Positions 9,901 through 29,911 of a stretch of 32,000 nt of DNA are shown in pieces. The stretch is from Xanthomonas cerealis pv. cerealis (lineage in GTDB: Bacteria > Pseudomonadota > Gammaproteobacteria > Xanthomonadales > Xanthomonadaceae). The translations under genes and the position numbers were made by a program. Below the pieces are notes generated by a model. That model was not told the DNA's origin, did no database searches, and saw only the letters and a list, made by a program, of their open reading frames with translations. Each line of letters starts with the position of its first letter. The first letter of the stretch is position 1. The stretch lies in assembly GCF_021903335.1 (NCBI RefSeq), contig NZ_CP074364.1; one strand, 5' to 3'.

Positions 9901-10270
9901 TGAGGAAGCCGGAATCCATGTGCTTGAACACACGCTGCCGCAGGCCCTTGAACGCCTTCGCCGCCCGCGCGCCCAGCGTGGAGCGGCGCAGCGCGCCCAG
10001 CGCGGCGAAGCCGGCATGCAACCCCAGCGTCATCCACGACACGGTCAGTGGCCCGCCGACTTGCACGTTGGTCGGGATGGCCACATTGATGCCGGTCGGC
10101 AGCAACAGCGAACGCAGCGGCTTCTTGGGCTTCTTGAACCGGAACGGCGGGATCAGCCCGGCGAGATTGCAGTCCAACACCGGCACCGCCAGCCGCGAGA
10201 ACGGGTCGCCGTCGGCCGACACCGTCTTGCTGCCCATGAAGATCTCTTCGCCATCGAACTGCGGCCCCAT
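6995..10270 (-). pseudogene. Rhs core pseudogene (copy 4): N-terminally deleted, internal TGA, no C-terminal toxin
   Basis: ORFs 7181..10270 plus 6995..7180 are collinear with residues ~74-1150 of the intact Rhs genes (offset 7927 nt from copy 2). The PVWVGNVA Trp codon of the intact copies (cca at 15108-15110) reads tca here (TGA, 7181-7183). Rhs homology stops near 7050, right after ...YPGTFVPLALIEKE, so there is no C-terminal core, DPxGL motif or toxin. Confidence 0.85.
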
Positions 10271-10357
10271 CGGCAGGCTCAGCTGCGGCGGAGCCGGTAA
10301 GGGCGGACGGCGGCGGCTCGGTCCAGGCGGGGATCTCGTTGTCCAGCGGATGGCGGA
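7050..10357 (-). repeat. Direct repeat unit R3 (~3.3 kb), a degenerate third copy of R1/R2
   Basis: The offset is 7927 nt from R2 (7704..7898 = 15631..15825, and 9324..9542 = 17251..17469). It has scattered substitutions and lacks 421 bp and 21 bp relative to R2. Confidence 0.85.
10291..10357 (-). pseudogene. Remnant of the 3' tail of the 541-aa vgrG-adjacent gene, fused to Rhs copy 4 by a deletion
   Basis: The sequence gagccggtaagggcggacgg...cggctcggtccaggcggggatctcgttgtccagcggatggcgga matches 24640-24756 and 18639-18726, minus a 21-nt internal deletion. It ends at the same novel junction ggcgga|agccttatatcc seen at 18726. Confidence 0.7.
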
Positions 10358-10420
10358 AGCCTTATATCCAAGGCAATAAGTCGCACGCAGTAATTGGATA
10401 CCAAGTGCCTCCTCTCAGCA

Positions 10421-10879
10421 TCAGCGACCACCGCCCTGCTCGCTAGCAAACTTCTCCCAGAGTAAGTCTGATATATATTCAGCAAACTGGGGCATCGATG
10501 ATGCGGAAGGCGGAGCATTTTCTTCTGTATATGATGCAGAGTCGCCATTCACCCTTAAAAAACTTCGACTACCCCGAAGTCCTTTGTAAAAGAGCAAATT
10601 ATCAATATCTTTAGCCACAAAATCAGGCTCCCGCCTTATTACAGGCCACTCGCCCGACTCGATAGCCAAAGTAACAATATTATGAACAGGAAGTATACGC
10701 CCGGATTCAACTATGTCGTCCGTATATGTGAAATCGCCTTTGAAATTATTAAAAAACTCTGCCAATCTCCACTTTCCATCCATGTAAATTATTTTACCAA
10801 ACCCGTAACCGCGGCCGCGAAGAGGGATAGCAAAGACATCCCCGACTGACAGCAACGACTTGCCTCGCTTAATAACCAT
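10421..10879 (-). CDS. Putative immunity protein for the orphan GIY-YIG-like Rhs toxin (Imm26-like by eye)
   Basis: Low-GC ORF directly downstream of the orphan toxin. The ATG at 10879 has AGGTGG 6-7 nt upstream; the track start at 10888 is GTG. The N-terminus, MVIKRGKSLLSVGDVFAIPLRGRGYGFGKIIY, resembles the xGDvfxiPLxdGxyGyg pattern of some polymorphic-toxin immunity families. The family call is weak. Confidence 0.6.
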   Translation of the reverse strand: MVIKRGKSLLSVGDVFAIPLRGRGYGFGKIIYMDGKWRLAEFFNNFKGDFTYTDDIVESGRILPVHNIVTLAIESGEWPVIRREPDFVAKDIDNLLFYKGLRGSRSFLRVNGDSASYTEENAPPSASSMPQFAEYISDLLWEKFASEQGGGR

Positions 10880-10984
10880 CAAACCCACCTATGTTCTGCA
10901 AACGGAGGGAGGACTGCTCATCGCATCATAATGTTTCTTGTATGCTATACCTCTCTCATCTTGTCTATTTACATCAAAGCCCAC

Positions 10985-12601
10985 CTACATATTACCTTCA
11001 CACCCAGGCCCTAAAGGCTTTCCGCGCTGAGAAGTCCGGAGCGCAGTCTCATTATATTTTTCAATATAAAAATGCTCCTTGCCTCTAGCCTCCGCATAAG
11101 TCCGTGCAGAATTCAACTCAATACTTTCAAGCTCGCCGTGAAGTCTACGACTTTCTTGATGTTCGTTCATGCGATCCCAGAACCTAGAGTCCTCGGTCAA
11201 CCCAACGTATTTAACGTCACCACTTTTTTTATCAACCAATGCATAAATTGTGTATCCCTTGCCATCTGCCCCAGTGTACTCAAGGTCAATTAAGCCAAGC
11301 GGATCAACCCAAGAAGTGGAACTGGGCGCATACTTATAAAAGTCGATTCCCGCAACAAGCCCCAACGGATCCCTGCTTACATATTGCCCGGCGATTGTAT
11401 CAAAATATCTATACCGGTTATAATTAAGGCCACTCTCGCCATCGAAATACTGCCCCTGATAACGAATATTGTTCTCTACTTCAGCGACAGATGACGAATA
11501 AGCACGCCCCCAAGCGCTATAGTTAACGGACCAAACAGTCTCTCCTGCACTATTTGTCATCCGCGTAGGACATCCATTGGGATCGACCTGATAGTGATAG
11601 CTCACCGATCGCCATCCCCCTGATTCAGCCGACCTGGAAAAGCTGAATTGCAGTTCTTCTTTTGCTCTATCCGCTGCGGCGAGCGCATTAACTTCCGGCG
11701 CATCTGCCGCCGATGTATTGACGGCGACATAACGGCTACCCGCCACCTGAGTCTTGCTGGAAGCGGACGGTTCGCCCCATGCACCCAAGGCGACCAAGTT
11801 CGACGGCTTTTGCTCGCCCTCTGCCGATGCCTCATCGGATTTCGCCACACCAGTTGGCGGATCGAGCAAGGCTCCCGCAATCACAGGTGCTTTAGTTCCC
11901 GCCCCCTGCCCCAGCGCCAGGTCTCCGCCCAGCGTGCCCAGCCCACCACCACCAGGCGGCTTGCCGGACTTGATGGCTGTCCGCGTCACCATCGTCGCAT
12001 GCTTTGCAGCGCCGTCGGCCGGTGCCAGTTTGGGTGCGGACGACGCCAGCACGCCCAGCGGCGCGGATGGCGTTCGCTGCGGCGGGGACATGTCTGCGGG
12101 CGCGGATGGCTTTGGAGCCTGGGTGGAATCCGAGCCGCGACTGTCCGTCAACGCATGCTTAGCCACAGCCGGCGCATCGGGTTGCGATATCTGCGAGATC
12201 GAACTTGTAGCGAGCTGCGCCAACTCGAGCGGCGCAGCACACTGCTCCTTCTCGATCAACGCCAGCGGCACGAAGCTGCCTGGGTAGTACACGTACTCCC
12301 GCGTGCGCTCATGTAGGCGCTTGAGCTTGTCCTGGCGCTTGCGTACGTTGCCGCGCGCGTCGTAGGCGAATTCGGTGCGCAGGCCTTCGGCGTCGGTGAC
12401 CGCCACGGTGCGGCCGACCGCGTCGTATTCGAACACGGTGACGCCGTCCAGCGCGTCGATCTCGCACAGCGGCAGGCGGTGCTCGTCGAACTTGACCAGC
12501 GATACGTGGCCGAGCGAGTCGGTCACCTGGGTCTCGCGCAGCAGGTCGTCGTAGGCGAAACGGTAGTCGTACAGGCCGCCGTCGCCCCAGGCGTGCACCA
12601 C
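10985..12601 (-). CDS. Orphan Rhs fragment: short piece of Rhs core, internal deletion, low-complexity linker, C-terminal Rhs core and GIY-YIG-like nuclease toxin
   Basis: It starts in the middle of the Rhs core (RVVHAWGDGGLYDYRFAYD; DNA homology runs up to ~12630). At 12346/12347, FAYDARGN is joined directly to VRKRQDKLKRLHERTREYVYYPGSFVPLALIEKE, so about 640 core codons are missing. Next come YHYQVDPNGCPTRM...YNRYRYFD...WVDPLGL and a 101-aa tail. There is no canonical start or RBS, only an in-frame GTG. Confidence 0.8.
   Translation of the reverse strand: MVHAWGDGGLYDYRFAYDDLLRETQVTDSLGHVSLVKFDEHRLPLCEIDALDGVTVFEYDAVGRTVAVTDAEGLRTEFAYDARGNVRKRQDKLKRLHERTREYVYYPGSFVPLALIEKEQCAAPLELAQLATSSISQISQPDAPAVAKHALTDSRGSDSTQAPKPSAPADMSPPQRTPSAPLGVLASSAPKLAPADGAAKHATMVTRTAIKSGKPPGGGGLGTLGGDLALGQGAGTKAPVIAGALLDPPTGVAKSDEASAEGEQKPSNLVALGAWGEPSASSKTQVAGSRYVAVNTSAADAPEVNALAAADRAKEELQFSFSRSAESGGWRSVSYHYQVDPNGCPTRMTNSAGETVWSVNYSAWGRAYSSSVAEVENNIRYQGQYFDGESGLNYNRYRYFDTIAGQYVSRDPLGLVAGIDFYKYAPSSTSWVDPLGLIDLEYTGADGKGYTIYALVDKKSGDVKYVGLTEDSRFWDRMNEHQESRRLHGELESIELNSARTYAEARGKEHFYIEKYNETALRTSQRGKPLGPGCEGNM
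10988..11290 (-). other. GIY-YIG-like nuclease toxin domain of the orphan Rhs-CT
   Basis: The sequence after DPLGL is IDLEYTGADGKGYTIYALVDKKSGDVKYVGLTEDSRFWDRMNEHQESRRLHG...ARGKEHFYIEKYN. TIY and YVG are 11 residues apart, followed by Arg, His, then Glu and Asn. This is the GIY-YIG order of conserved residues. GC is low. Confidence 0.6.
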
Positions 12602-12733
12602 CCGCCAATGCGCGTCGTAGGCGCCTTCTCTCCAAGGGGGACTACAGCAGATCTCACTACTTGGCTTCTGAAAGAACTTTCAGCAACATCGATAAATTTC
12701 ATCATTCATTACTTTATCGCCAGACATTGACTA

Positions 12734-13282
12734 TCAATCAGGCTTTTCTGCCGCTTCTTCTAGCCATCTAATCAAAGCACTGTTAGCCGAGCCATTTAGC
12801 CTTAGGGCTCTCTCAGTATTCGAATAAGTCGGAGGAATCAATTCGACATTAATCAGAACGCTTCTTCTAGGTTGATTCTTTGAAAAAATACCCTCTGAGT
12901 CAAGCATACTCATCGCACGCTCCATCGCTATTATTCTTGAATCAAGCTCAATCAGCCAACCCTCGGAATCAAGACTTTCTATTCCCGGCCTAGCTCCAAA
13001 AACCGCCTGGAGACCGGCAAAGGCATCGCCAGCGTAGTCGATGTAAGGCGAATCGGCATAAGACCACCTGACATACTCGAAATACTCCTCAGACTCCTGG
13101 CCTTTTTGTTTTTCCCTAGCCAACGCTTGCTCAGACCATGCAGAAAGGAAAGGAGGATGACCTTCTTCAGTAGTTACCAATACGCAATAATAAAAATTTT
13201 CATCATGCTTTTCTTCGAATAGTGTAGAGAATGCCTGCTTGGAGCAAGCATATATCTCACACACCAGATCATCATCGAACAT
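12734..13282 (-). CDS. Putative second immunity/accessory protein of the rhs2 cassette (DUF4303-like by eye)
   Basis: 182-aa low-GC ORF lying 16 nt downstream of the first immunity gene. The pattern ...AFSTLFEEKHDENFYYCVLVTTEEGHPPFLSAWSEQAL...YVRWSYADSPYIDY resembles DUF4303 proteins, which are often found next to polymorphic toxins. Confidence 0.55.
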   Translation of the reverse strand: MFDDDLVCEIYACSKQAFSTLFEEKHDENFYYCVLVTTEEGHPPFLSAWSEQALAREKQKGQESEEYFEYVRWSYADSPYIDYAGDAFAGLQAVFGARPGIESLDSEGWLIELDSRIIAMERAMSMLDSEGIFSKNQPRRSVLINVELIPPTYSNTERALRLNGSANSALIRWLEEAAEKPD

Positions 13283-13298
13283 TTAGTTTATTGCAACA

Positions 13299-13667
13299 TC
13301 AAGCAGAAAAACCAAAAACACCGACAAGCGTCAAGCCGTTGTACTTGGAACCGACAGTGACTGAACCGTCAAAATCGATCATACTGAAACAATGGCTGGC
13401 CTGGGTAATCCCAAAAGCACTACAAGCACTCAGAAGCTCATCTTCGAACTGGTCGGAATACGGCACCTCAATTATGACATCTTCAACAGACGTGGGGCCA
13501 CCCGCGTTATAAGCCGAGAACTTATCGAAATCGAACCACTCTTTTTGGGTGTCCTTGCAAAACCCACACTCGGCTCCGTATTTTTCAACATCGAAATATT
13601 TCTCCCATTCCCTATCGTTTCCAGGGTAGACGCCAAGCCACACATGGATACTTTTATCGTTTTTCAT
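13299..13667 (-). CDS. Putative immunity protein of rhs2 (Imm22-like by eye)
   Basis: 122-aa low-GC ORF whose ATG lies 3 nt after the rhs2 stop. MKNDKSIHVWLGVYPGNDREWEKYFDVEKYG...WFDFDKF matches the hvWlGxf...eeYf...yDxDf pattern I associate with Imm22-type immunity proteins. Confidence 0.6.
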   Translation of the reverse strand: MKNDKSIHVWLGVYPGNDREWEKYFDVEKYGAECGFCKDTQKEWFDFDKFSAYNAGGPTSVEDVIIEVPYSDQFEDELLSACSAFGITQASHCFSMIDFDGSVTVGSKYNGLTLVGVFGFSA

Positions 13668-13670
13668 TGA

Positions 13671-16600
13671 TCACCTGCACTTGAGTTTTCTAGCCATAGA
13701 CCCACCATTTCTCACATGCTGCCGCATGAACTTCTTTATAATCCTTACTGCGCCTAATTTTGTATTAGCCCTTCCCAGTCGATTAGACAGATCAATATGC
13801 GCATGGGAACTTGCCCGCGCAGATTGACCGGCGGGCAAAGGCTTACCCGTTGAGTGAGGCCCACTTAGTGTCGCCCCCGGCCTCCTAGGATCAGCAACAT
13901 TTTCAAACCAAACGTCATCTACGGGAGAGGAAAGTTTCATAAGTTCTTCATAGCTGAAACCGAGGGACTTCGCCTTCGCAGCCATGGATACTGGAAACCA
14001 CTCGTGTCGGCCGCCAGAACCTCGCAAAGCCGATTGGACCTGATCCCTAGTTTTGGGATCGGCCATTGCATCAACTATGTCTTGCTCGTTTGCCGCGTTA
14101 AACCAATCGCCAAACCCTTGGCCTGCATTACCCCACGGCGTCGAAATCCACCCCAATGGATCTGCCCACTGAAGCGAGTTGTAGGCATACTGGTAAAGAT
14201 TAAGACCTCCAAGCAGGCCAATCGGATCAGCCCCAATATACTGCCCCAGACGGGCGTCATAGTACCTATATCTATTGTAGTTCAGGCCAGTCTCTTCATC
14301 AAAAATTTGGCCCTGATATCGCAAGCAAGTATCAATCAAATTTATGTGCTGAACTAGCACTCCGCCCCAGGCAGCATAACTGACCGCCCAGAGTATTTCG
14401 CCCTTAGCACTTGTAACTCTGGTTGGGCACCCATTTAGATCAACATGATAGTGATAAACGACTGAGCGCGACTCAAGAATGTCCTCCTGATTCGGAAGAT
14501 GTGAATTAGTTCCTTCACTCTCGTCCAACCCTGTCGATTGAGACGAGGCAGGGCTGAACATGCTTTTCGTTGTCTCAGCTAGATGAGTATCCCTGCGATC
14601 AATGCTAGAGCTCCACAATTGCATTCCCATGCGCATGGGTGACGACGATTGCTTGAGCAAAGCGTCAGCCTGTCGCTTACTGGTCACAGGGACTTGCGTC
14701 GCCTCCGAAAACTCTAAACCTTCTACGGCGTTCTCTTCAACAGCCCGTACAGATAGAGGTATTGCATCGCCGGTAGTGCCTCCGAGTGCTGTACCTCCAA
14801 GCACGCCGAAGCTGTTTGCTGAAATCTGTCGCGCACCTACTGACGCTGCGAATTTCGCTGCTCCGTCAGGCCTTCCCGCGTTAGCGATTTTACCGGGCGA
14901 GGTTGATACAGCCTTGCTGGCCGAGTGTGTACCCGCTCTCTCGCCGTCTGCAGTGTTCGCCTTTGATGCCGTCCGCGGTTCTTTTTCCACCAGCGCAAGC
15001 GGTACGAACGTGTCCGGGTAATAAACATACTCGCGCGTACGCTCATGCAGCTTGGCAAGCTTCTCCTTACGGCGCTTGGCCTCGATCAGGTTCGCGACAT
15101 TGCCCACCCACACCGGCGCCGCGTCCGGTTCGTCGTGGGCCTGCTTCACTTCGCCCAGCAGCGCGTCCCCGTCCCAGTAGAACCAGGTGGTGTGGGTCGG
15201 GTTGCGCTTGAACACGCGCCGGCCCAGCGGGTCGTAGCCGTAGTGGGTGGTTTGGCCGGCCTTGCGGCTTTCGGCCAGGCGGTGGTTGGCGTCCCAGAGC
15301 AGTTCCAGGTCGTCCGGTTCCGGGCCGTTCGGGCTGCCCTTGCGGACCAGGTCGCCGGCGCGGTCGAACACGTAGTGCACGCCGTCGTAGCTGCCTTCGC
15401 GGGTCCACTGCACCTGCTGCTCGTCGTCGCCGCCGGCCACCTTGCGCAGCTGCACCTGCTGCACGCGCGTGGCCAGGCGGTCGCCGGCCGGATCGTTGAA
15501 GAAGCGCTCGATGCGGCCCTTCGGGTCGGTGTGCTGCAGCAGCCGGCCCAGCACGTCGTAGCGGTATTCGTCCACGCCCTGCGCGCTGTCGCGGCGGTGG
15601 GTCAGGTTGCCGGCGCGGTCGTAGTCGTAGGTGGTCTCGAACAGCGGCGCGGCATCGCGCAACACGGTCTGCGCGGTCAGCAGGCTGCGCCCGTCGTACT
15701 GGAACTGGCGCTGCACCTGCGCGCTGAGCTGTTCGCGGGTGGTGCGGCCCAGCGCGTCGCGCTCGATGGCGATGGGCGCATCGTCGTTGATCGCCACCTC
15801 GACCACCTGGTCGCGCAGGTCGTAGCCGAACGCGATCCGGTTGCCGGCGGAGGTCTCGCGCAGCACGCGGTTGCCCACTTCGTCATAGCCGTAGCCGACG
15901 CGGAAGCCGTCCTGCACTTCCTCCAGCACCTGCCCCAGCGCGTCGAACCTGCGCGTGGCGGTGCGATGCCGGTTGCGCAGTTCCACCAGCTGCCCGCGCG
16001 CGTCGTAGGCGAACTGCTCCTGCACCTGCTGGCCCGGCGTGCGTATGTCCGGCAAGGTCTTCCTGACGATGCGCCCGAGCGGGTCGGTGGCGAAGGCAAT
16101 GCGCTGGCCCATCGGGTCGATCGTCGCGGTCAGCCGCCCGCAGGCGTCGTACTGGTAGTGCCGCGACTGGCCCCAGTAGTCGGTCTCCTCGACGATGCGG
16201 CCCAGCGGATCGCGGCGCAGCCGGTAGGCCTCGCCGCGCTGGTTGATCACCGCCACCAGCTGTTCTTCGCTGTCGTAGCGGTATTCCACCGTGTGCCCGT
16301 CCGGCTGCACGCGCTTGCCGATCTGGCCGATGCCCACGTAGTGCAGCCGCGTCTGCGCCCCGGCTTCGTCCACGTAGCGCACCAGCTGGTCCTCGGCGTC
16401 GTAATCGCACTGCACCTGCCCGCCGTCGGCCGAGCGGATGCGCAGCAGCCGGCCCTTGGCGTCGTAGTCGTAGTGCGTGGCCTGGCCCAGCGGATCGACC
16501 TGCTTGTGCAGCCGCCCCAGCGCGTCGTGCGCGTAGCGGCTCTCGTGGCCCAGCGCGTCGCGCAGCCAGGCCAGCAGGCCGTAGCGGTCGTAGCCCAGCT

Positions 16601-22500: not shown

Positions 22501-24462
22501 GTGCGTGGCCTGGCCCAGCGGATCGACCTGCTTGTGCAGCCGCCCCAGCGCGTCGTGCGCGTAGCGGCTCTCGTGGCCCAGCGCGTCGCGCAGCCAGGCC
22601 AGCAGGCCGTAGCGGTCGTAGCCCAGCTTGGTCTGCGCGCCGCGCGGGTTGCGCTGCGCCACCAGCAGGCCGTGCGCATCGTAGTCATAGTGCGTGGTGG
22701 CGCCCAGCGGATCGGTCTGCGTCTGCAGCAGCCCGCGCGCGTCGTGCGCCTGGTGCCAGGCGTGGCCGCCCGGGTCGGTGACCGACAGCAGCCGGTCGTC
22801 CTCGTCGTAGACCTGGTGCAGCGTGCTGCCGTCGGGGCGGCGCAGGCGCAACAGGTTGCCGCGCGCGTCGTAGGCGAACGCGGTGCGCAGGCCTTCGGCG
22901 TCGGTGACCGCCGCGGTGCGGCCGACCGCGTCGTACTCGAACACGGTGACCCCGTCCAACGCATCGATCTCGCACAGCGGCAGGCGGTGCTCGTCGAACT
23001 TGACCAGCGATACGTGGCCGAGCGAGTCGGTCACCTGGGTCTCGCGCAGCAGGGCGTCGTAGGCGAAACGGTAGTCGTACAGGCCGCCGTCGCCCCAGGC
23101 GTGCACCACCCGCCACTGCGCGTCGTAGGCGTAGTGGAACGACAGGCCGACGCGGTCGGTATGCCGGACTATGCGGTGCTGGCGATACTCAAACGTGCGC
23201 GGCACGCCCAGCGCGTCCTCGGCGGCGACCAGGTCGCCTTCCACATAGCGATAGGCCACCAGCGGATGGGTCAGGCCGGTGGCCGGATCGTGCAGTTGCA
23301 GGCGGTCGATGCGGCCGTGCCGCGACTGCACCTCGATGAAGCGGCCCTGCAGCCCGCCCACGCCGCGTTCGACGATGCGCACCAGGTGGCCGTCGCCGCG
23401 CTCGAAGCGCCAATGGTTGCCGCAGGCGTCCTCGACCTGCGCGATCGGCAAGGTTTGCGCGCGCGGCAGCACGCCGACACCGGCCGCCGGCGCATAGGCG
23501 AAGCGGTAGCGTAGGTCGGACTTGGTCCGCACCAGCAGGTCGGTGCCTTCGCGCAGCAGCCGCGCGCCGTCGACGAACTCGACGACCGGGACGCCGTCGG
23601 CGTCCGGCAGCTGCGGGAACACGGCCACGCTGTGGCCGTCGTGGAACAGCACCACGCCGTCGGCGTCGATCTCCAGGCGGATGTCGGCCGGCGTCTGCCA
23701 GCCGTGGCCGCAGGCGCCGGCCTCCTCGCCGCGCCCGGAACCGTAGCCGCGCGACCAGGCCAGCGGCAGCCGCCCGGGGATCGCGAAGTCCTCGTGTTGC
23801 ACCGACACGCTGCCGTCGCGGATGTCCACCGGCTCGGCGCGCAGCACCTTGCACTTGAGGAAGCCGGAATCCATGTGCTTGAACACACGCTGCCGCAGGC
23901 CCTTGAACGCCTTCGCCGCCCGCGCGCCCAGCGTGGAGCGGCGCAGCGCGCCCAGCGCGGCGAAGCCGGCATGCAACCCCAGCGTCATCCACGACACGGT
24001 CAGTGGCCCGCCGACTTGCACGTTGCTCGGGATGGCCACATTGATGCCGGTCGGCAGCAACAGCGAACGCAGCGGCTTCTTGGGCTTCTTGAACCGGAAC
24101 GGCGGGATCAGCCCGGCGAGATTGCAGTCCAACACCGGCACCGCCAGCCGCGAGAACGGGTCGCCGTCGGCCGACACCGTCTTGCTGCCCATGAAGATCT
24201 CTTCGCCGTCGTACTGCGGCCCCATCGGCAGGGTCAGCTGCGGCGCCCACGCGCCCAGCGGAATATGGATGTCCAGCCCGCCGGTGCCGGCGGTGGCGCG
24301 CTTGACCCCGTTGACGGTGACCGTGGCGCCGAGGAACGGCAGGTAGTCGAACGGATCCAGCACGATGCCGATATGCGGCGTCGGCAGCGGACACGGCGGC
24401 AGCTGATACATGTGGATGTCGATGCCCAGCTGCGGGTCGAAATGCTTGGCGGCAGTGCTCAT
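19597..24462 (-). CDS. Intact Rhs-family T6SS effector (rhs1, 1621 aa) with the same N-terminal ~1110 aa as rhs2 but a different linker, C-terminal core and 159-aa toxin
   Basis: AAGGAG lies upstream of the ATG at 24462. Translation matches rhs2 for ~990 aa, and all overlapping six-frame ORFs are identical at an offset of 6028 nt. It ends ...YHYHVDPNGCPTRV...YNRYRYYD...WMDPLGL plus a low-GC tail. Confidence 0.95.
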   Translation of the reverse strand: MSTAAKHFDPQLGIDIHMYQLPPCPLPTPHIGIVLDPFDYLPFLGATVTVNGVKRATAGTGGLDIHIPLGAWAPQLTLPMGPQYDGEEIFMGSKTVSADGDPFSRLAVPVLDCNLAGLIPPFRFKKPKKPLRSLLLPTGINVAIPSNVQVGGPLTVSWMTLGLHAGFAALGALRRSTLGARAAKAFKGLRQRVFKHMDSGFLKCKVLRAEPVDIRDGSVSVQHEDFAIPGRLPLAWSRGYGSGRGEEAGACGHGWQTPADIRLEIDADGVVLFHDGHSVAVFPQLPDADGVPVVEFVDGARLLREGTDLLVRTKSDLRYRFAYAPAAGVGVLPRAQTLPIAQVEDACGNHWRFERGDGHLVRIVERGVGGLQGRFIEVQSRHGRIDRLQLHDPATGLTHPLVAYRYVEGDLVAAEDALGVPRTFEYRQHRIVRHTDRVGLSFHYAYDAQWRVVHAWGDGGLYDYRFAYDALLRETQVTDSLGHVSLVKFDEHRLPLCEIDALDGVTVFEYDAVGRTAAVTDAEGLRTAFAYDARGNLLRLRRPDGSTLHQVYDEDDRLLSVTDPGGHAWHQAHDARGLLQTQTDPLGATTHYDYDAHGLLVAQRNPRGAQTKLGYDRYGLLAWLRDALGHESRYAHDALGRLHKQVDPLGQATHYDYDAKGRLLRIRSADGGQVQCDYDAEDQLVRYVDEAGAQTRLHYVGIGQIGKRVQPDGHTVEYRYDSEEQLVAVINQRGEAYRLRRDPLGRIVEETDYWGQSRHYQYDACGRLTATIDPMGQRIAFATDPLGRIVRKTLPDIRTPGQQVQEQFAYDARGQLVELRNRHRTATRRFDALGQVLEEVQDGFRVGYGYDEVGNRVLRETSAGNRIAFGYDLRDQVVEVAINDDAPIAIERDALGRTTREQLSAQVQRQFQYDGRSLLTAQTVLRDAAPLFETTYDYDRAGNLTHRRDSAQGVDEYRYDVLGRLLQHTDPKGRIERFFNDPAGDRLATRIHQVQMRKVAGGDDEQQVQWTREGSYDGVHYVFDRAGDLVRKGSPNGPEPDDLELLWDANHRLAESRKAGQTTHYGYDPLGRRVFKRNPTHTTWFYWDGDALLGEVKQAHDEPDAAPVWVGNVADLIGVKRRKEKLAKLHERTREYVYYPGSFVPLALIEKEQGPALHEAPQPATTTSIAQISRSDAPPVALTDSRGSDSTQPPTPSAPADMSPPQRTPSAPLGVLASSAPKLAPADGAAKPAMMAAPAAIKSGKQPGGGGLGTLGGDLALGQGAGIKMPAIGGALVDPPADVAKSDEASTDGEQKPSNLVALDMRLMGDPIVSNRMPDPISATSSSTADASVEMMTASRERELLPTGLVEGAATWRSAIYHYHVDPNGCPTRVTCGDGEVVWSANYSGWGRASESSSKINSFLRYQGQYYDQETCLHYNRYRYYDSTAGCFLSIDPLGFLAGDNLYNFGKNTIGWMDPLGLTVEKLTGDVLWDRIAREVDAAASFAEKALDRGITRGTQWGKIYQEILAGNERYANIPVQMARGNAIQQMADVVLSKNHYMQHEAQVQSNRGHMDGLKNARGNTVRPDYQARLKDGRVGIIDITTSGQRSKISKYGSVHATNAIHGARNASGGEPARGSC
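19600..20076 (-). other. rhs1 C-terminal toxin domain, unclassified
   Basis: The 159 aa after DPLGL are TVEKLTGDVLWDRIAREVD...GTQWGKIYQEILAGNERY...ARGNAIQQMADVVL...GNTVRPDYQARLKDGRVGIIDITTSGQRSK... The RPD...(h)IDIT stretch only weakly recalls a PD-(D/E)xK core. I recognise no family. Confidence 0.5.
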
Positions 24463-24756
24463 CGCTACGCTCCTTCGTCGCTACAGCGCACGGGCCAGCG
24501 CGCGCAGGAGCGCGCGCACGTCGTCGCGATGCTCCACGCCCAGCCACAGCCGCCGCGCCCATGCCGATCAGCACGAACAGCGGCCAGCACGGCCAGTTTG
24601 CGCGCGCTCATGCGGTGGCCTCGGTCAGTCCGGAACGCCCCGGCGCCTGCGCGTCGCACGCGGCGGCGGAACCGGTCAGGGCGGACGGATCGGGCAGCGG
24701 CTGCGTCGCCGGCGGCTCGGTCCAGGCGGGGATCTCGTTGTCCAGCGGATGGCGGA
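21131..24756 (-). repeat. Direct repeat unit R1 (~3.6 kb): tail of the 541-aa gene, small ORF and the 5' ~3.3 kb of rhs1
   Basis: Collinear with 15103..18726 at an offset of 6028 nt (6030 beyond the two indels). Every overlapping ORF-track translation is identical (for example 21659..21853 = 15631..15825, and 23271..23972 = 17243..17944). Confidence 0.9.
24465..24611 (-). pseudogene. Frameshifted counterpart of the 42-aa small ORF, upstream of rhs1
   Basis: The ATG at 24611 overlaps (ATGA) the stop of the 541-aa gene. Compared with 18453..18581 there are two single-nt insertions about 27 nt apart. From that ATG the reading becomes MSARKLAVLAAVRADRHGRGG..., which is not hydrophobic. The TM and C-terminal segments sit in the other two frames. 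Confidence 0.35.
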
Positions 24757-26233
24757 TGTCCGGCAGCCCGTTCCAGGTCGGATGCAGGAAGTCGCGCCCC
24801 ACCGCCACCACCTTGCGGAAGAACGCGTCGCCGCCCTGGATCAGGCGTTCGCGCTCCTGCGCGACGCGATGGAAGGCCTGTTCGAAACCGGCATGCAGCG
24901 CGGCCTCGATGCGATCCAGTTGCGCGCTGTCCGGGCGCGGCCCGAGCTGCGCGGCCTGTGCCTCGGCCTGCGCGTGCAGCGCGGCCACCGCTTGTAGATA
25001 CGACGCGGCGCACTGCTCGAGCTTCTGCGCGCGTGGCCTGTCCTGCAGCAGCAGCAGATCCTGCAGCGTTTGCGGCAAGGTGGTGGTGCGGCGGTCCGCG
25101 GGCGGCAACGGCTTGGCCGCACGGATCGCCTCCAACCCATGCGCGCGCGCGGCCTCGCGTTGGCCGTCCTGGGCCAGGCAGAACGCGGCCATGCGATAGC
25201 CTTCGATCACGAACATCGGGTTGGGGATCTCGGCGGCGGCCTTGGCCGCGGCGACGTAGGTTTCGGCGGCACGGCCGGGCTGGCCGGCGACGAACCAGGT
25301 GCCGGCCTCGCCGTACCAGCTCTGCATCACCAGGTCGCGCGCGGCCGGGTGCTGCATGGCCAGGGCCTGCAGGCCGCACTCGCGCGCCTGCCGATAGCTG
25401 GCGATGGCCTGCGGATACTGCTTTTCCTTCAGCCAGCCGCCGGCCAGCATCATGTTCAGCACCACCTGCTGGTCGGGCCAAGCGTGCCGCTGGGCCAGCG
25501 CCAATGGCCGCTCGACGCGCTGCGCCAGTTGCGTCGCGCTGCCGCGCTCCAGCACCGTCATCAGGTCGCTGAGCATCTGCCGGTAGGCCACCGCAGGCCC
25601 CGCGCCGCCCGACTGCGCCGCGGTTTCGCGCGCGATGTCGAACATGTCCAGCGGCGGCTCGATGCGCCGCGCGATCGCCGCGTGCCGCTCCAGCAGCGGC
25701 TGCCAGCGCGGATCCTCGTGGGTGTCGACCAGCACCAGGCGGAGCGCCGGCGACGGCGCCGCCGCCAGCGCCGCGTCCATCCAGCGCGCGAATGCATCGC
25801 CAGAGGTGGTCCGCTCCGGTTCCAACACCACCGCCAGATAGCGCAGATGCACCTGGTGGTAGGCGGCGAAGGAATCCAGTACCTCGACCACGCCCAGCGC
25901 GCTGTCCGGGTGCGAGGGTCCCGGGCCGGGCCAGCCCAGTTCCACGCCCTGCTCGCGCAGCGCGCTCTGGCTGCCCAGGTAGCTGGCGTGCAGCGCCTGC
26001 TTCAGCGCGCGGCTGTAGCCGAAGCCCGTGTCGAACGGCGTATCCAGGCGCAGGAAGTAATCCGGCGCGTTCCAGTCGCCGGGATGTTTCTGCGCCTCGA
26101 AGAAGGCGGCCAGCAGGCGCGCGGCGTTGGCCGGCACACGCCATACCAACAGGCGCAGCGCCGGGTCCTCGCTGGCCTGCATCCACGCATCGCCAAGCAG
26201 CTCGATACGTCGTTCGACCGGATTCTTGCTCAC
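24608..26233 (-). CDS. Unclassified 541-aa protein with a TPR-like helical region; positional candidate for a VgrG-Rhs adaptor/chaperone
   Basis: The GTG at 26233 has GGGAGGG ~10 nt upstream and lies 22 nt after the vgrG stop. GC3 is high. The central region looks like helical repeats (QYPQAIASYRQARECGLQALA...GRAAETYVAAAKAAAEI...GYRMAAFCLAQDGQREAARAHGLEAIRAA). I saw no DUF4123, DUF2169 or DUF1795 signature. Confidence 0.75.
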   Translation of the reverse strand: MSKNPVERRIELLGDAWMQASEDPALRLLVWRVPANAARLLAAFFEAQKHPGDWNAPDYFLRLDTPFDTGFGYSRALKQALHASYLGSQSALREQGVELGWPGPGPSHPDSALGVVEVLDSFAAYHQVHLRYLAVVLEPERTTSGDAFARWMDAALAAAPSPALRLVLVDTHEDPRWQPLLERHAAIARRIEPPLDMFDIARETAAQSGGAGPAVAYRQMLSDLMTVLERGSATQLAQRVERPLALAQRHAWPDQQVVLNMMLAGGWLKEKQYPQAIASYRQARECGLQALAMQHPAARDLVMQSWYGEAGTWFVAGQPGRAAETYVAAAKAAAEIPNPMFVIEGYRMAAFCLAQDGQREAARAHGLEAIRAAKPLPPADRRTTTLPQTLQDLLLLQDRPRAQKLEQCAASYLQAVAALHAQAEAQAAQLGPRPDSAQLDRIEAALHAGFEQAFHRVAQERERLIQGGDAFFRKVVAVGRDFLHPTWNGLPDIRHPLDNEIPAWTEPPATQPLPDPSALTGSAAACDAQAPGRSGLTEATA

Positions 26234-26255: not shown

Positions 26256-28499
26256 TCAGCAGTTCAGCTTGATTTCCGAGCCGTTGACCGACACCCCGGA
26301 GCCGTCGATGACGATCACCGAACCGCCGGCGGAAATAGTGATCTTCTCGCCGAGGATCTCGATCGCCGCGCCGCCCACCGTCGCGGTGAGGTTGCTGCCC
26401 GAGGCCAGGGTCATGTTGCCGTTGGACATCAACATGTGGGTGCCGGTGATGCTCTGCTCCATGTCGCCTTGGACGCTGACCGTGCGTGCGCCGACGTTGG
26501 CGTCCTCCACGGCGCCCTGCACGCTGCGTTTGTCCAGGCCGGTGATGCTGACCTCGCGCCCGGCGCTCAGCTGCTCGGTGACCTTGCCGATCACCTGGCG
26601 CAGCGAGGTCTGGGTGACGGTCTCCTTCCACGCGCCGGTGCGCTGGCTGGTGTAGTTGCCGGTCAGGGTGGTGGCGAAATTGCCGGTGATGGTTTCGGTG
26701 TAGCCGGCCGCGGCGATGGTCTTGGTCTCGCCGGCCTGGTAGGTTTCGGTGACCGCGCCGGTGACGCTGGTGCTGCGCGTGCCGGTGACGCCCAGCGTGT
26801 CGTTGCCGGTCACGGTGATGCCGCGGTTGGCGCCGACGCTGATGCTCTGGTTGGACCCCACGTCCATGCGGTGGTCGACCGCCACGCTGGTGCTCTTGTT
26901 GTTCTTCACCGTCGCGTTCTGGTCGTTGAGCACGGTGGTCACCATGTCGCGCTGCGCGCGCATGTTCAACAGCTCGCCGCCGGCGGTGTCGTGCATGGTC
27001 ATTTCGTTGTAGCCGCCGCCTTTGACCGTCTTGGACTTCAGGCCGCTGACCTCCATGCCGAACGGCGGCATGTTGTCTTCGTTGAACACGCGGCCGGTGA
27101 TGATCGGCCGGTCCGGATCGCCATCGAGGAAATCCACCACCACCTCCTGGCCCACACGCGGCGGCGACACGCCGCCCATATCGGCGCCGGCCCACGGACT
27201 GGCGCTACGGATCCAGCACGAGCTGTTCTCGCGAAACTGGCCCTTGCGGTCCCAGTGGAACTGCACCTTCACTCGCCCGTAGCGGTCGGCGTACAACTCC
27301 TCGCCCGGCGGCCCGACCACGGTGGCGGTCTGCGGGCCGGGCATGCGCTGCTGCGGCGTGTCGCGCAGCGGCCGGTACGGGATCTTGCGCCGCAGCGCGG
27401 TGGCGCTGCAACGATAGGTCGGCGCTTCGGCCTGGCTGTAGTCGCTGGAGAAGTTGTTGCGGCCTTCGCGATGCAGCTGCACGACGAAGAACTGTCGGTC
27501 GTCCTCGCTGCGGCCGATGAAATCCGGATGCCGTTCAAGGGTGAAACACCCCCCGGCCTGCAGCTCGGTACTGTTGCCGGCGCCTTCGAACAATTTGGTG
27601 GGCCACGCCGCTTCCTCGCTACGGATCGCCGCCAATGCCTCGCCGACGCGGCTGTCGGCGAAACGCGCCGCGCCGTCGTAGTGGTAGCGCTCCAGTTCGG
27701 GGAGCGCGCCGACCGGGATCGACCGCGCCGTGCTGGCCGACAGCGCAGTACGCGGCTGCTTGAAATCGAAGCTACTCACCGCATGCGCGGTGGGGCCGAC
27801 CCGGCGCCGCGCCGACCAACTGTGCAAGCCGGGCGTCCGCAGCACGCCCTGGTCGGACACGAACGCCACAGGCGCCGGCTCGCCCAGTGCCGTGGAGGCG
27901 GTGGAATCGTCGGCCAGCACCATCGTGTGCGCGCCCTCGGCGTGCACGAACGTGTAGTAGATGCCGGCGTCCTCCAGCAGGCGCGAGACGAAGGTGAAAT
28001 CCGATTCGTTGTACTGCACGCAGTACGGCAGCTTGGGGAAGTTGCCGGCATTCAACTCGTACTTGTAATCGGCCAGTTGGGGGTATTCGCCGAACACCTG
28101 CTCGACGATCTCCAGCACGCTCAGATCCTGGAAGATGCGGCAATTGCTGGTGTACTGCAAAAACGCGAACCACGGGGCGACCTCGGCGCGATACGCGGCC
28201 AATTCGCTTTCGGCGCCGATCAGCGCGAACTCCTTGACGTAACCGTGCACGACACGGTCGTCGAACTCGTCGCCCAGGCTGAGCTGGATCGGCTGGCCGA
28301 CCAGTTGCTTCAATTCCAGGCGCCGCTGCGCGGACAGCAGGTCGACGGCGAACGCATAGGGCGCCGATACCGTTTCCGTGCCTTCGAAGCATTTGACGAT
28401 GAAGGTGTCAGGATCCAGCGCTGTGGTAACCCGGATCAGGCGCCGATCCTGGTTCAGACGTAGCGCGGCAACTCCACTGGATATCATTTCGGCGTGCAC
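26256..28499 (-). CDS. vgrG: T6SS spike protein VgrG/TssI (747 aa, no C-terminal effector extension)
   Basis: The GTG at 28499 has AGGAG 5-6 nt upstream. The N-terminus is typical of VgrG: RLIRVTTALDPDTFIVKCFEGTETVSAPYAFAVDLLS, then CRIFQDLSVLEIVEQVF, YCVQYNESDFTFVSRLLEDAGIYYTF and FHWDRKG. A repetitive beta-helix tail ends ...GSGVSVNGSEIKLNC. Confidence 0.95.
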   Translation of the reverse strand: MHAEMISSGVAALRLNQDRRLIRVTTALDPDTFIVKCFEGTETVSAPYAFAVDLLSAQRRLELKQLVGQPIQLSLGDEFDDRVVHGYVKEFALIGAESELAAYRAEVAPWFAFLQYTSNCRIFQDLSVLEIVEQVFGEYPQLADYKYELNAGNFPKLPYCVQYNESDFTFVSRLLEDAGIYYTFVHAEGAHTMVLADDSTASTALGEPAPVAFVSDQGVLRTPGLHSWSARRRVGPTAHAVSSFDFKQPRTALSASTARSIPVGALPELERYHYDGAARFADSRVGEALAAIRSEEAAWPTKLFEGAGNSTELQAGGCFTLERHPDFIGRSEDDRQFFVVQLHREGRNNFSSDYSQAEAPTYRCSATALRRKIPYRPLRDTPQQRMPGPQTATVVGPPGEELYADRYGRVKVQFHWDRKGQFRENSSCWIRSASPWAGADMGGVSPPRVGQEVVVDFLDGDPDRPIITGRVFNEDNMPPFGMEVSGLKSKTVKGGGYNEMTMHDTAGGELLNMRAQRDMVTTVLNDQNATVKNNKSTSVAVDHRMDVGSNQSISVGANRGITVTGNDTLGVTGTRSTSVTGAVTETYQAGETKTIAAAGYTETITGNFATTLTGNYTSQRTGAWKETVTQTSLRQVIGKVTEQLSAGREVSITGLDKRSVQGAVEDANVGARTVSVQGDMEQSITGTHMLMSNGNMTLASGSNLTATVGGAAIEILGEKITISAGGSVIVIDGSGVSVNGSEIKLNC

Positions 28500-29163: not shown

Positions 29164-29239
<76 letters not shown>

Positions 29240-29275: not shown

Positions 29276-29911
29276 TCAACCATTGCCTTCGATTTTCTTC
29301 GCATTCTTGTCCGCCACCGCGGCGCGCTCGTCGGCGCGCAGGCTCGGCCAGGCCGCATGCAGGTACTGGATGCCGGACAGCAGGGTCAGGATCGAGGCGA
29401 TCGCCAGCGTCCAGTCGCCGATGTGGAAGATGAACAGGCCCATCCACACGCTCTCCGGCGGCGAACCGTCGGGCATCACCGAGTACAGCAGGCACAGCAG
29501 CGCGACCATCTGTGCGGTGGTCTTGACCTTGCCGATCATCGCCACCCGCACCTTGGCGCGCTGGCCGATCTCGGCCATCCACTCGCGCAGCGCCGACACC
29601 GCGATCTCGCGGCCGACGATCACCGCCGCCCAGAACGCCATCCACGGCGTCGGGTGGCCCTGCACGATCAGGAACAGCGCCACCGCGACCATCAGCTTGT
29701 CGGCCACCGGGTCCAGGAACGCGCCGAACGCCGAATATTGGTGGTAGCGCCGCGCGACCCAGCCGTCAAGCCAGTCGGTGAACGCGGCCAGGCCGAAGAT
29801 CGTCGCCGAGGCGAAATTCGTCCACTTGTACGGGAGGTAGAACACCAGCACCAACACCGGAATCATCACGATGCGCAGCAGCGTCAGCCAGGTGGGGATG
29901 GTCAACTTCAT
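29276..29911 (-). CDS. pgsA: CDP-diacylglycerol--glycerol-3-phosphate 3-phosphatidyltransferase
   Basis: 211-aa polytopic membrane protein with the CDP-alcohol phosphatidyltransferase motif DWLDGWVARRYHQYSAFGAFLDPVADK. It sits in the uvrC-pgsA-tRNA-Gly order, the same as in E. coli. Confidence 0.9.
   Translation of the reverse strand: MKLTIPTWLTLLRIVMIPVLVLVFYLPYKWTNFASATIFGLAAFTDWLDGWVARRYHQYSAFGAFLDPVADKLMVAVALFLIVQGHPTPWMAFWAAVIVGREIAVSALREWMAEIGQRAKVRVAMIGKVKTTAQMVALLCLLYSVMPDGSPPESVWMGLFIFHIGDWTLAIASILTLLSGIQYLHAAWPSLRADERAAVADKNAKKIEGNG

Follow-up and report, generated by a model that had tools for sequence, protein, structure and literature searches.

Organization of the rhs locus

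In the window, the whole 32,000-nucleotide (nt) stretch of contig NZ_CP074364.1 that was analysed, several rhs units follow vgrG as a tandem array. They belong to a type VI secretion system (T6SS) auxiliary cluster of Xanthomonas translucens pv. cerealis. The element under study is an orphan rhs module within this array. It consists of an open reading frame (ORF) of 538 amino acids (aa) with a GIY-YIG-type tail, followed by an Imm26 immunity gene, and it sits downstream of rhs2 and the rhs2 immunity genes on the same strand (Table 1). The cores of the rhs genes are 97-99% identical to one another and have a guanine-cytosine (GC) content of approximately 70%. All tips and immunity genes have a GC content of approximately 45%. 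The surrounding DNA in the window has a high GC content.

Table 1. Coordinates of the orphan module and of the other features in the window. Positions are those of the window; rows of the orphan module are given first.
Feature	Position	Strand	Remarks
Orphan ORF	10985-12601	-	538 aa; followed by Imm26 at 10421-10888
Retained rhs core fragment	12347-12623	-	277 nt, approximately codons 445-536 of intact rhs1/rhs2 (92 codons)
Deletion junction FAYDARGN/VRKRQDKL	12346/12347	-	core codon 536 joined to codon 1119
C-terminal core	11306-12346	-	native-GC part with low-complexity Ala/Pro/Gly loop, then RHS-associated core
DPLGL autoproteolysis motif, demarcates Rhs shell from toxin	11291-11305	-	from translation; WVDPLGL is residues 431-437
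Truncated GIY-YIG (Tox-URI1-type) nuclease toxin, predicted	10988-11290	-	101 aa; GYTIY...YVG...R...EH...ARGKE...GN
Premature in-frame TAG	10985-10987	-	Gln in closest relatives; probably CAG to TAG
Post-stop conserved C-terminal extension	10892-10984	-	31 codons in the same frame, VGFDVNRQDERGIAYKKHYDAMSSPPSVCRT
Original stop TAG	10889-10891	-	abuts Imm26 start
Imm26 immunity gene, apparently intact	10421-10888	-	GTG 10888 or ATG 10879; 152-155 aa
Inter-unit segment	10308-10540	-	last ~120 nt of Imm26, spacer and 50-nt copy of the 3' end of the 541-aa gene
rhs3 pseudogene	7047-10290	-	self-BLAST and translation; rhs homology stops at 7045
DUF4303 gene, after Imm22/DUF4284	12734-13282	-	
Imm22/DUF4284 gene, after rhs2	13299-13667	-	
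rhs2	13671-18434	-	1587 aa
Pentapeptide-repeat immunity gene (rhsI1), after rhs1	18938-19603	-	
rhs1	19597-24462	-	1621 aa
541-aa gene, between vgrG and rhs1	24608-26233	-	
VgrG gene	26256-28499	-	
tRNA-Gly	29164-29239	-	
pgsA	29276-29911	-	
uvrC	29921-31984	-	

Structure of the orphan reading frame

The orphan ORF does not contain an ATG, and its first candidate start is a GTG at 12601 that corresponds to V453 in the intact genes. Similarity to the core of the rhs genes extends from 12623 (AYDA, approximately codon 445) to 12347. The preliminary description, which was made from the sequence alone, likewise has the frame beginning mid-core, near residue 447. The core fragment is 96.8% identical over 277 nt to all three rhs cores (22855-23131 in rhs1, 16827-17103 in rhs2 and 8900-9176 in rhs3), and a Pfam RHS_repeat match covers ORF residues 59-88. 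The N-terminal region is absent and the Pfam scan has no PAAR or DUF6531 match, in agreement with the earlier statement that the module has neither a PAAR-like N-domain nor an obvious start. The 110-bp gap upstream of the module has zero promoter-like sites, and the whole region has 3 where shuffled sequences predict 3.3. The counts of the promoter and terminator scan are equal to those of the shuffles and are uninformative.

The deletion junction is located exactly where the preliminary description had placed it, at 12346/12347, by both BLAST and alignment. The gap comprises codons 537-1118 of the intact genes. By BLAST boundaries and alignments it measures 1755 nt, or about 582-585 codons, and the approximately 640 skipped codons given earlier are too many. 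In the alignment, no microhomology is seen at the junction.

Downstream of the junction, the C-terminal core is 87% identical to rhs1 (11785-12337 against 20553-21099) and 90% identical to rhs3 (12238-12346 against 7045-7153, 109 nt). Its homology to rhs2 is much weaker, with approximately 82% identity in the first ~165-185 nt only. The claim that the module has homology to the intact genes on both sides of the deletion thus stands for all three genes on the core side, and on the 3' side for rhs1 and rhs3 but hardly for rhs2. Pfam RHS (PF03527) matches residues 335-367 and TIGR03696 (Rhs_assc_core) matches residues 361-437. Both aspartyl-protease DPxGL elements (DPLGLVAG...WV) are present in the pattern DPLGL-x17-VDPLGL. 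These matches and the translation bear out the complete C-terminal core, the DPLGL motif and the 101-aa tail after it that had been described. The GC content drops from ~0.66 to ~0.45 across 11450-11750, and the tail is unrelated to the present tips of rhs1 and rhs2 (CT1 and CT2).

The frame is open over 538 codons across the junction, and the deletion is therefore in frame. This favours an independently translated 538-aa product that starts at the internal GTG or at another start and has its own role, for example as an intracellular nuclease or as a T6SS cargo fragment. An in-frame junction has a prior of 1 in 3, and the missing ATG, promoter-like upstream site and PAAR/DUF6531 region are not congruent with such a product. 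Only ~90 of the roughly 1100 shell residues N-terminal to the C-terminal core are present, and the product would therefore not form a closed Rhs cage. Independent translation with a role of its own is highly improbable.

Assignment of the tail to the GIY-YIG superfamily

With the tail alone as the query, there are no matches in Pfam (E up to 10), NCBIfam, the PDB sequences or a word-indexed protein search. The AlphaFold model of the single sequence is poor, with a predicted local distance difference test (pLDDT) score of 47. The toxin family came to light only when 1.8 billion representatives were scanned exhaustively with HMMER, which gave 18 proteins related to the tail. The matched domain lies at the very C-terminus in 16 of these, and in the other two it is ~33-85 residues from the end. 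In all of the longer relatives but one, which has a different carrier, the domain follows a DPxGL-like motif on an Rhs-type carrier.

The alignment of the 18 members contains an invariant G, Y, Y-x-G, R, Y and R-G-x-E and a near-invariant H, R, A, I and N. Pfam GIY-YIG (PF01541) matches 15 of the 18, with a best E of 3.4e-7. About 60 members of the toxin subfamily were found in total. The GIY and YIG motifs take the form GYTIY-x9-KYVG, and Y17, Y29 and G31 are invariant across 62 relatives. R41 and H45 are each present in 61 of 62, R70-G71-x-E73 in all 62 and N101 in 59 of 61, and the window copy has all of these residues. The alignment-based AlphaFold model has a pLDDT of 91.6 and a beta-beta-alpha-beta-alpha-alpha order, with strands at 15-22 and 28-35. 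The top 15 PDB fold matches of this model are all GIY-YIG nucleases (PD-T4-3, UvrC-N, I-TevI and T4 EndoII), with probabilities of 0.84-1.00. Because of the family Pfam matches, the signature residues, the model and the fold matches, membership of the tail in the GIY-YIG/URI superfamily, as predicted from alignment and model, is well supported at the family level. The GIY-YIG order of residues that the preliminary description had read in the tail is upheld by the same evidence. A profile search of residues 438-538, which it had proposed, gives a more divided result. The window tail matches PF01541 with E 0.0031 and 18.2 bits, which points to GIY-YIG as do its relatives, but remains below the 22.6-bit gathering threshold.

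That score is one of the points in favour of a chance resemblance, in which case the tail would be no nuclease toxin. The first Pfam scan of the tail was without a match, and the PDB profile search has two matches only, both GIY-YIG proteins and both weak (E 0.35). The family-level Pfam matches are much stronger than this, and the invariant residues correspond exactly to those that define GIY-YIG/Tox-URI1 domains (Y, YxG, R, [RK]xxE, N). The fold matches are exclusively to GIY-YIG enzymes, and an Imm26 gene follows nearly every relative. A chance resemblance is extremely improbable.

Among described toxins, the tail is most readily compared with Tox-URI1 (Zhang et al. 2012). The two share the signature Y, YxG, R, [RK]xxE and N, a C-terminal place on RHS carriers and a T6SS context. 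They differ in that members of the window's subfamily also share a conserved extension at the C-terminus, GN[RK]xNS[FY]D..RTD.R...F...Y, which often ends in Cys and is cut off in the window copy. Pfam holds no Tox-URI1 model. Tox-URI2 (PF15653) is not among the Pfam families reported for the 18 members, for which no Tox-URI2-specific test was run. The tail also resembles the canonical GIY-YIG nucleases (UvrC N-terminal domain, I-TevI catalytic domain, T4 EndoII and PD-T4-3) in predicted fold and in the order of catalytic residues, with TM-scores of 0.45-0.58 over 75-100 columns and 16-24% identity. Unlike these enzymes, it is without DNA-binding or accessory domains and would be used as the tip of a secreted toxin.

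Premature stop and substitutions in the toxin

The orphan ORF ends ...PLGPGCEGNM-TAG, and the same frame runs on as VGFDVNRQDERGIAYKKHYDAMSSPPSVCRT-TAG up to the GTG of Imm26. The closest relative is a Rhodanobacter glycinis homologue that is 72% identical. It reads ...EGNRQAGFDIARTDTRGKAFRKHYDAMTPESAGCRI and has its stop right at the start of its immunity gene. The two sequences are colinear across the stop, with Rhodanobacter ...EGNRQAGFD... aligned to ...EGNM-stop-VGFD... in the window. The post-stop segment is 60% identical over 30 aa to this homologue (E 5e-10 in the family set) and retains the conserved R110, R114 and Y122. In the relatives, 120-140 aa follow DPxGL, and the toxin stop and the immunity start are -15 to +46 nt apart. 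In the window, the premature stop is 96-105 nt from the immunity start. The 31 residues lost are present in nearly all of the about 60 relatives. The preliminary description had singled out the GIY-YIG domain for functional testing because it is so short. It is not a naturally short domain, as an in-frame TAG removes ~31 conserved residues still readable downstream, and its length of 101 aa results from a nonsense mutation, probably from CAG to TAG. The same module with the same TAG stop is found in two other assemblies.

The toxin also carries the substitutions G49R, Q74H and T84A at positions that are conserved in 89-98% of the 62 relatives. At position 74, which adjoins the catalytic Glu, 61 of 62 relatives have Gln and the window has His. 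In the same alignment the window copy keeps every catalytic residue.

An intact close allele was not found. A protein search with the C-terminal core and tail gave only matches to the C-terminal core, apart from a JGI metagenome protein (P0002) on a 907-bp contig that is 61% identical overall and 71% identical in the tail.

Shortened toxin copies with 65-101 aa of the domain, each with a full-length Imm26 behind it, are also present in Citrobacter werkmanii, Proteus alimentorum and a Gilliamella sp. These independently shortened copies in three other genomes suggest that toxin decay with retention of immunity is recurrent.

Imm26 and its pairing with the toxin

The gene after the orphan had been called immunity-like, and this identification can be made specific. 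Its product matches Pfam Imm26 (PF15428) with E 1.3e-10 and 42 bits, above the 23.3-bit cut-off. It is 52% identical, colinear to the end, with the product of the gene downstream of the Rhodanobacter toxin. Two further X. translucens assemblies encode exactly the same protein. Among genomes scanned at one per species, 50 loci encode toxin relatives, and the next downstream gene was scanned in 34 of them. This gene is Imm26 in 33 of the 34. The 50 loci span several classes of Proteobacteria, Bacteroidetes and Actinobacteria, with single metagenome-assembled genomes (MAGs) assigned to Planctomycetota and Acidobacteriota.

The pairing of this toxin with Imm26 is real and already known. Tox-URI1 on RHS carriers of T6SS is listed with Imm26, one of four immunity families given for it (Zhang et al. 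2012, PMC3482391). PAAR-RhsA-GIY-YIG effectors of Salmonella SPI-6 and GIY-YIG Rhs C-terminal tips of Stenotrophomonas are reported as well (PMC11669294; bioRxiv 10.64898/2026.07.13.738213). These are also GIY-YIG tips on T6SS Rhs carriers of Gammaproteobacteria. They differ from the window module in being full-length and presumably active effectors, and they are set beside the window's subfamily by description only. In the Stenotrophomonas paper, the immunity family that accompanies the GIY-YIG tips does not appear to be Imm26. Novelty of a GIY-YIG domain on an Rhs carrier is therefore not supported, and because the pairing was catalogued in 2012 the window toxin is an ordinary member of a known toxin type. 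The compact subfamily of about 60 members, with its conserved C-terminal extension and near-obligate Imm26, could merit a profile model of its own.

Apparent recombinants and the reservoir question

Recombination between an orphan toxin and a full-length rhs gene has reportedly been seen in evolved Salmonella by Koskiniemi et al. in 2014. A functional reservoir of this kind would be silent but competent, and recombination of its C-terminal core with that of rhs1 or of the rhs3 type, or of its core fragment with any core, would put an active GIY-YIG toxin on an expressed Rhs. The homology required is present on both sides of the deletion, with the 277 nt at 96.8% identity to all cores and ~550 nt at 87% identity to rhs1, which also shares a perfectly identical stretch of 61 nt with the orphan. 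The catalytic residues are all kept, and the cleavage motif, the Rhs-associated core and Imm26 are intact. These features do not establish the reservoir toxin, ready for recombination, that the preliminary description had proposed. The premature TAG drops 31 residues that are nearly universal in the subfamily and three conserved positions are altered, and any recombinant would for these reasons carry a truncated, possibly defective toxin. By the map, a simple crossover with rhs1 would delete ~8.8 kb that include rhsI1, rhs2 and rhsI2. A competent reservoir is unlikely.

A single database protein, the best database match, resembles the rhs1::orphan recombinant for which the preliminary description had suggested a screen. 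This 472-aa protein (P0001) is 100% identical to rhs1 over its first 134 residues and 100% identical to the orphan from residue ~104. It starts right behind a gap of 10 N in scaffold MADM01000135.1, and the switch falls in the 61-110-nt stretch that is common to rhs1 and the orphan. In the same assembly, an orphan-type left flank ends just before this stretch and a CT1 right flank begins just after it, behind an N gap. GCA_000807145.1, which is X. translucens pv. cerealis CFBP2541 (PMC6090828), carries DNA that is near-identical to the window. In this strain, the contig with the rhs1 C-terminal core and CT1 is 100% identical to the window (18332-21272). Because of the N gap, the shared stretch and the complementary flanks, the protein is most likely an assembly chimera, and this best explanation removes it as support for a competent reservoir. 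The CFBP2541 chromosome (CM003052.1) appears to lack rhs1, which is attributed to repeat collapse with the rhs1 tip on an unplaced contig.

Public short-read assemblies of this locus are mis-joined at the rhs repeats. The affected loci are MADM01000135.1, with a chimeric rhs1/orphan contig at 3050-3700, MADM01000072.1 and CM003052.1; the rhs1 core is collapsed and the rhs1 tip is left on an unplaced contig.

A stronger version of the recombination account takes the MADM01000135.1 junction as real, with the 101-aa domain as an active minimal GIY-YIG nuclease that rhs1::orphan recombinants in natural X. translucens populations deploy. It would be a natural, non-laboratory case of orphan-toxin activation in a plant pathogen. 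It is very unlikely.

History of the rhs array

The inter-unit segment (10308-10540) is 91% identical to 18677-18907, which is located downstream of rhsI1 and upstream of rhs2. Its part at 10308-10357 is 98% identical to 24707-24756. The second copy includes a remnant of the 3' end of Imm26 (~120 nt at 18788-18907, minus strand) between rhsI1 and rhs2 that is 91% identical to 10421-10540. This remnant indicates that a GIY-YIG/Imm26 module once ended the rhs1 unit too, and that GIY-YIG/Imm26 is probably the ancestral tip of the tandem array. The remnant also implies, by sequence comparison, that the present rhs1 tip replaced a GIY-YIG/Imm26 tip. The C-terminal core of rhs1 resembles that of the orphan as far as ~20553, beyond which it departs towards the present tip.

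The rhs3 pseudogene joins an orphan-type allele of the C-terminal core in frame to undeleted core (NLIEVRKRQDKLKRL), and this allele occupies rhs3 from 7153 downward. At the 5' end of rhs3, 17 bp take the place of ~461 bp that comprised its upstream region and its first ~72 codons. A TGG-to-TGA nonsense codon is present at 7181-7183, at the position of W1109. Homology ends at 7045, with no C-terminal core beyond it and no tip or immunity gene. The endpoint of the orphan deletion (12346/12347) matches the allele switch in rhs3 (7153/7154) to within 1-2 nt (GAG/GTACGCAAG and AAC/GTACGCAAG).

These relationships are most simply arranged into the following putative sequence of events. The starting state would be a tandemly duplicated rhs-GIY-YIG-Imm26 unit, of which units 1 and 2 would later gain new low-GC tips. 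In unit 2, the GIY-YIG/Imm26 tip would have been displaced on acquisition of the present rhs2 tip (CT2, Imm22 and DUF4303) and pushed downstream with a long core remnant. This remnant would then have lost 1755 nt. The array in the window shows tip turnover at several stages. It has two active genes whose low-GC tips are imported, a gutted pseudogene, a displaced ancestral tip and an immunity-gene remnant.

Function and fate of the module

In Rhs proteins, the shell generally encloses the toxic tip, which is released by autoproteolysis at DPLGL and delivered through VgrG/PAAR by the T6SS; GIY-YIG domains cleave DNA by a one-metal mechanism. An intact Rhs protein of the ancestral type would be mounted on VgrG by its PAAR-like N-terminus for T6SS delivery, with the toxin enclosed at the C-terminus and cut free at DPLGL by the aspartyl protease. 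The GIY-YIG domain would then cut the DNA of the recipient with one metal ion, and Imm26 would block it in the producer. In the orphan copy, the N-terminal 444 codons and shell codons 537-1118 are gone.

The preferred reading of the module is that of a displaced orphan tip, a decaying toxin relic with retained immunity, and not of a toxin reservoir that is ready for use; we give this reading a probability of approximately 75%. The toxin part is probably silent and decaying, and Imm26 is full-length. A disabled toxin half beside a full-length immunity half without visible defect fits the idea that orphan modules can end as immunity stores and not as toxin reservoirs. The intact Imm26 may have been kept as orphan immunity, with relatives that still deploy this toxin as its target.

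Several points weigh against this reading. The 101-aa domain spans positions 2-74 of the 78 in the Pfam GIY-YIG profile, and with all catalytic residues kept in the sequence it may retain some nuclease activity. Transcription that reads through from the rhs2 operon is also possible, as is initiation at the internal GTG. Selection on Imm26 is suggested by its intactness alone. The order of events, displacement followed by deletion, is a reconstruction, and the coincidence of the two endpoints in the orphan and rhs3 could mean a cassette insertion rather than a deletion, a limit of gene conversion, or chance.

Orphan rhs-CT/rhsI modules have reportedly been described by Jackson et al. in 2009, Poole et al. 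in 2011 and Koskiniemi et al. in 2014. The window module resembles them in its position downstream of a full-length rhs/rhsI pair and in its 3' core fragment with DPxGL. It also has a distinct low-GC toxin tip with its own immunity gene and is without an N-terminal region or start. It differs from them in the additional mid-core fragment (codons 445-536) with the 1755-nt internal deletion, in the premature stop of the toxin, and in its apparent origin as the array's ancestral tip and not as a recent import. Orphan tips are a standard element of Rhs loci. A survey of Xanthomonas catalogues 119 orphan rhs tips (bioRxiv 10.1101/2025.05.08.652813). By the length classes of this survey, the 538-aa window module would be binned as a "pseudogene" and not as an "orphan". 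The current view of Rhs systems is unchanged by the module, which is mostly a worked example.

Neighbouring genes

The 541-aa gene between vgrG and rhs1 has zero Pfam matches and occupies the usual position of Rhs adaptor or chaperone genes. The last ~150 nt at its 3' end are copied upstream of rhs2, and 50 nt are copied upstream of rhs3. Past the array, and likewise on the minus strand, the T6SS-associated cluster continues with a Peptidase_M15_4 gene, then a PAAR gene and others. Strain CFBP2541 has an IcmF/TssM-family gene just past the end of the window.

The DUF4303 gene is without a toxin of its own and is probably an extra or orphan immunity gene. In the Stenotrophomonas preprint, DUF4303 appears to be linked to an Rhs nuclease tip, apparently AHH by the order of the list. 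The rhs1 tip (~160 aa, 19597-20090) and the rhs2 tip have zero Pfam matches. The rhs1 tip contains a PDY...IIDITT...QRSK pattern, which by eye we take to resemble a PD-(D/E)xK nuclease. Its immunity gene, rhsI1, encodes a pentapeptide-repeat protein, and proteins of this kind can act as DNA mimics. Identical copies of the rhsI1 protein are present in three JGI metagenomes and one SRA run.

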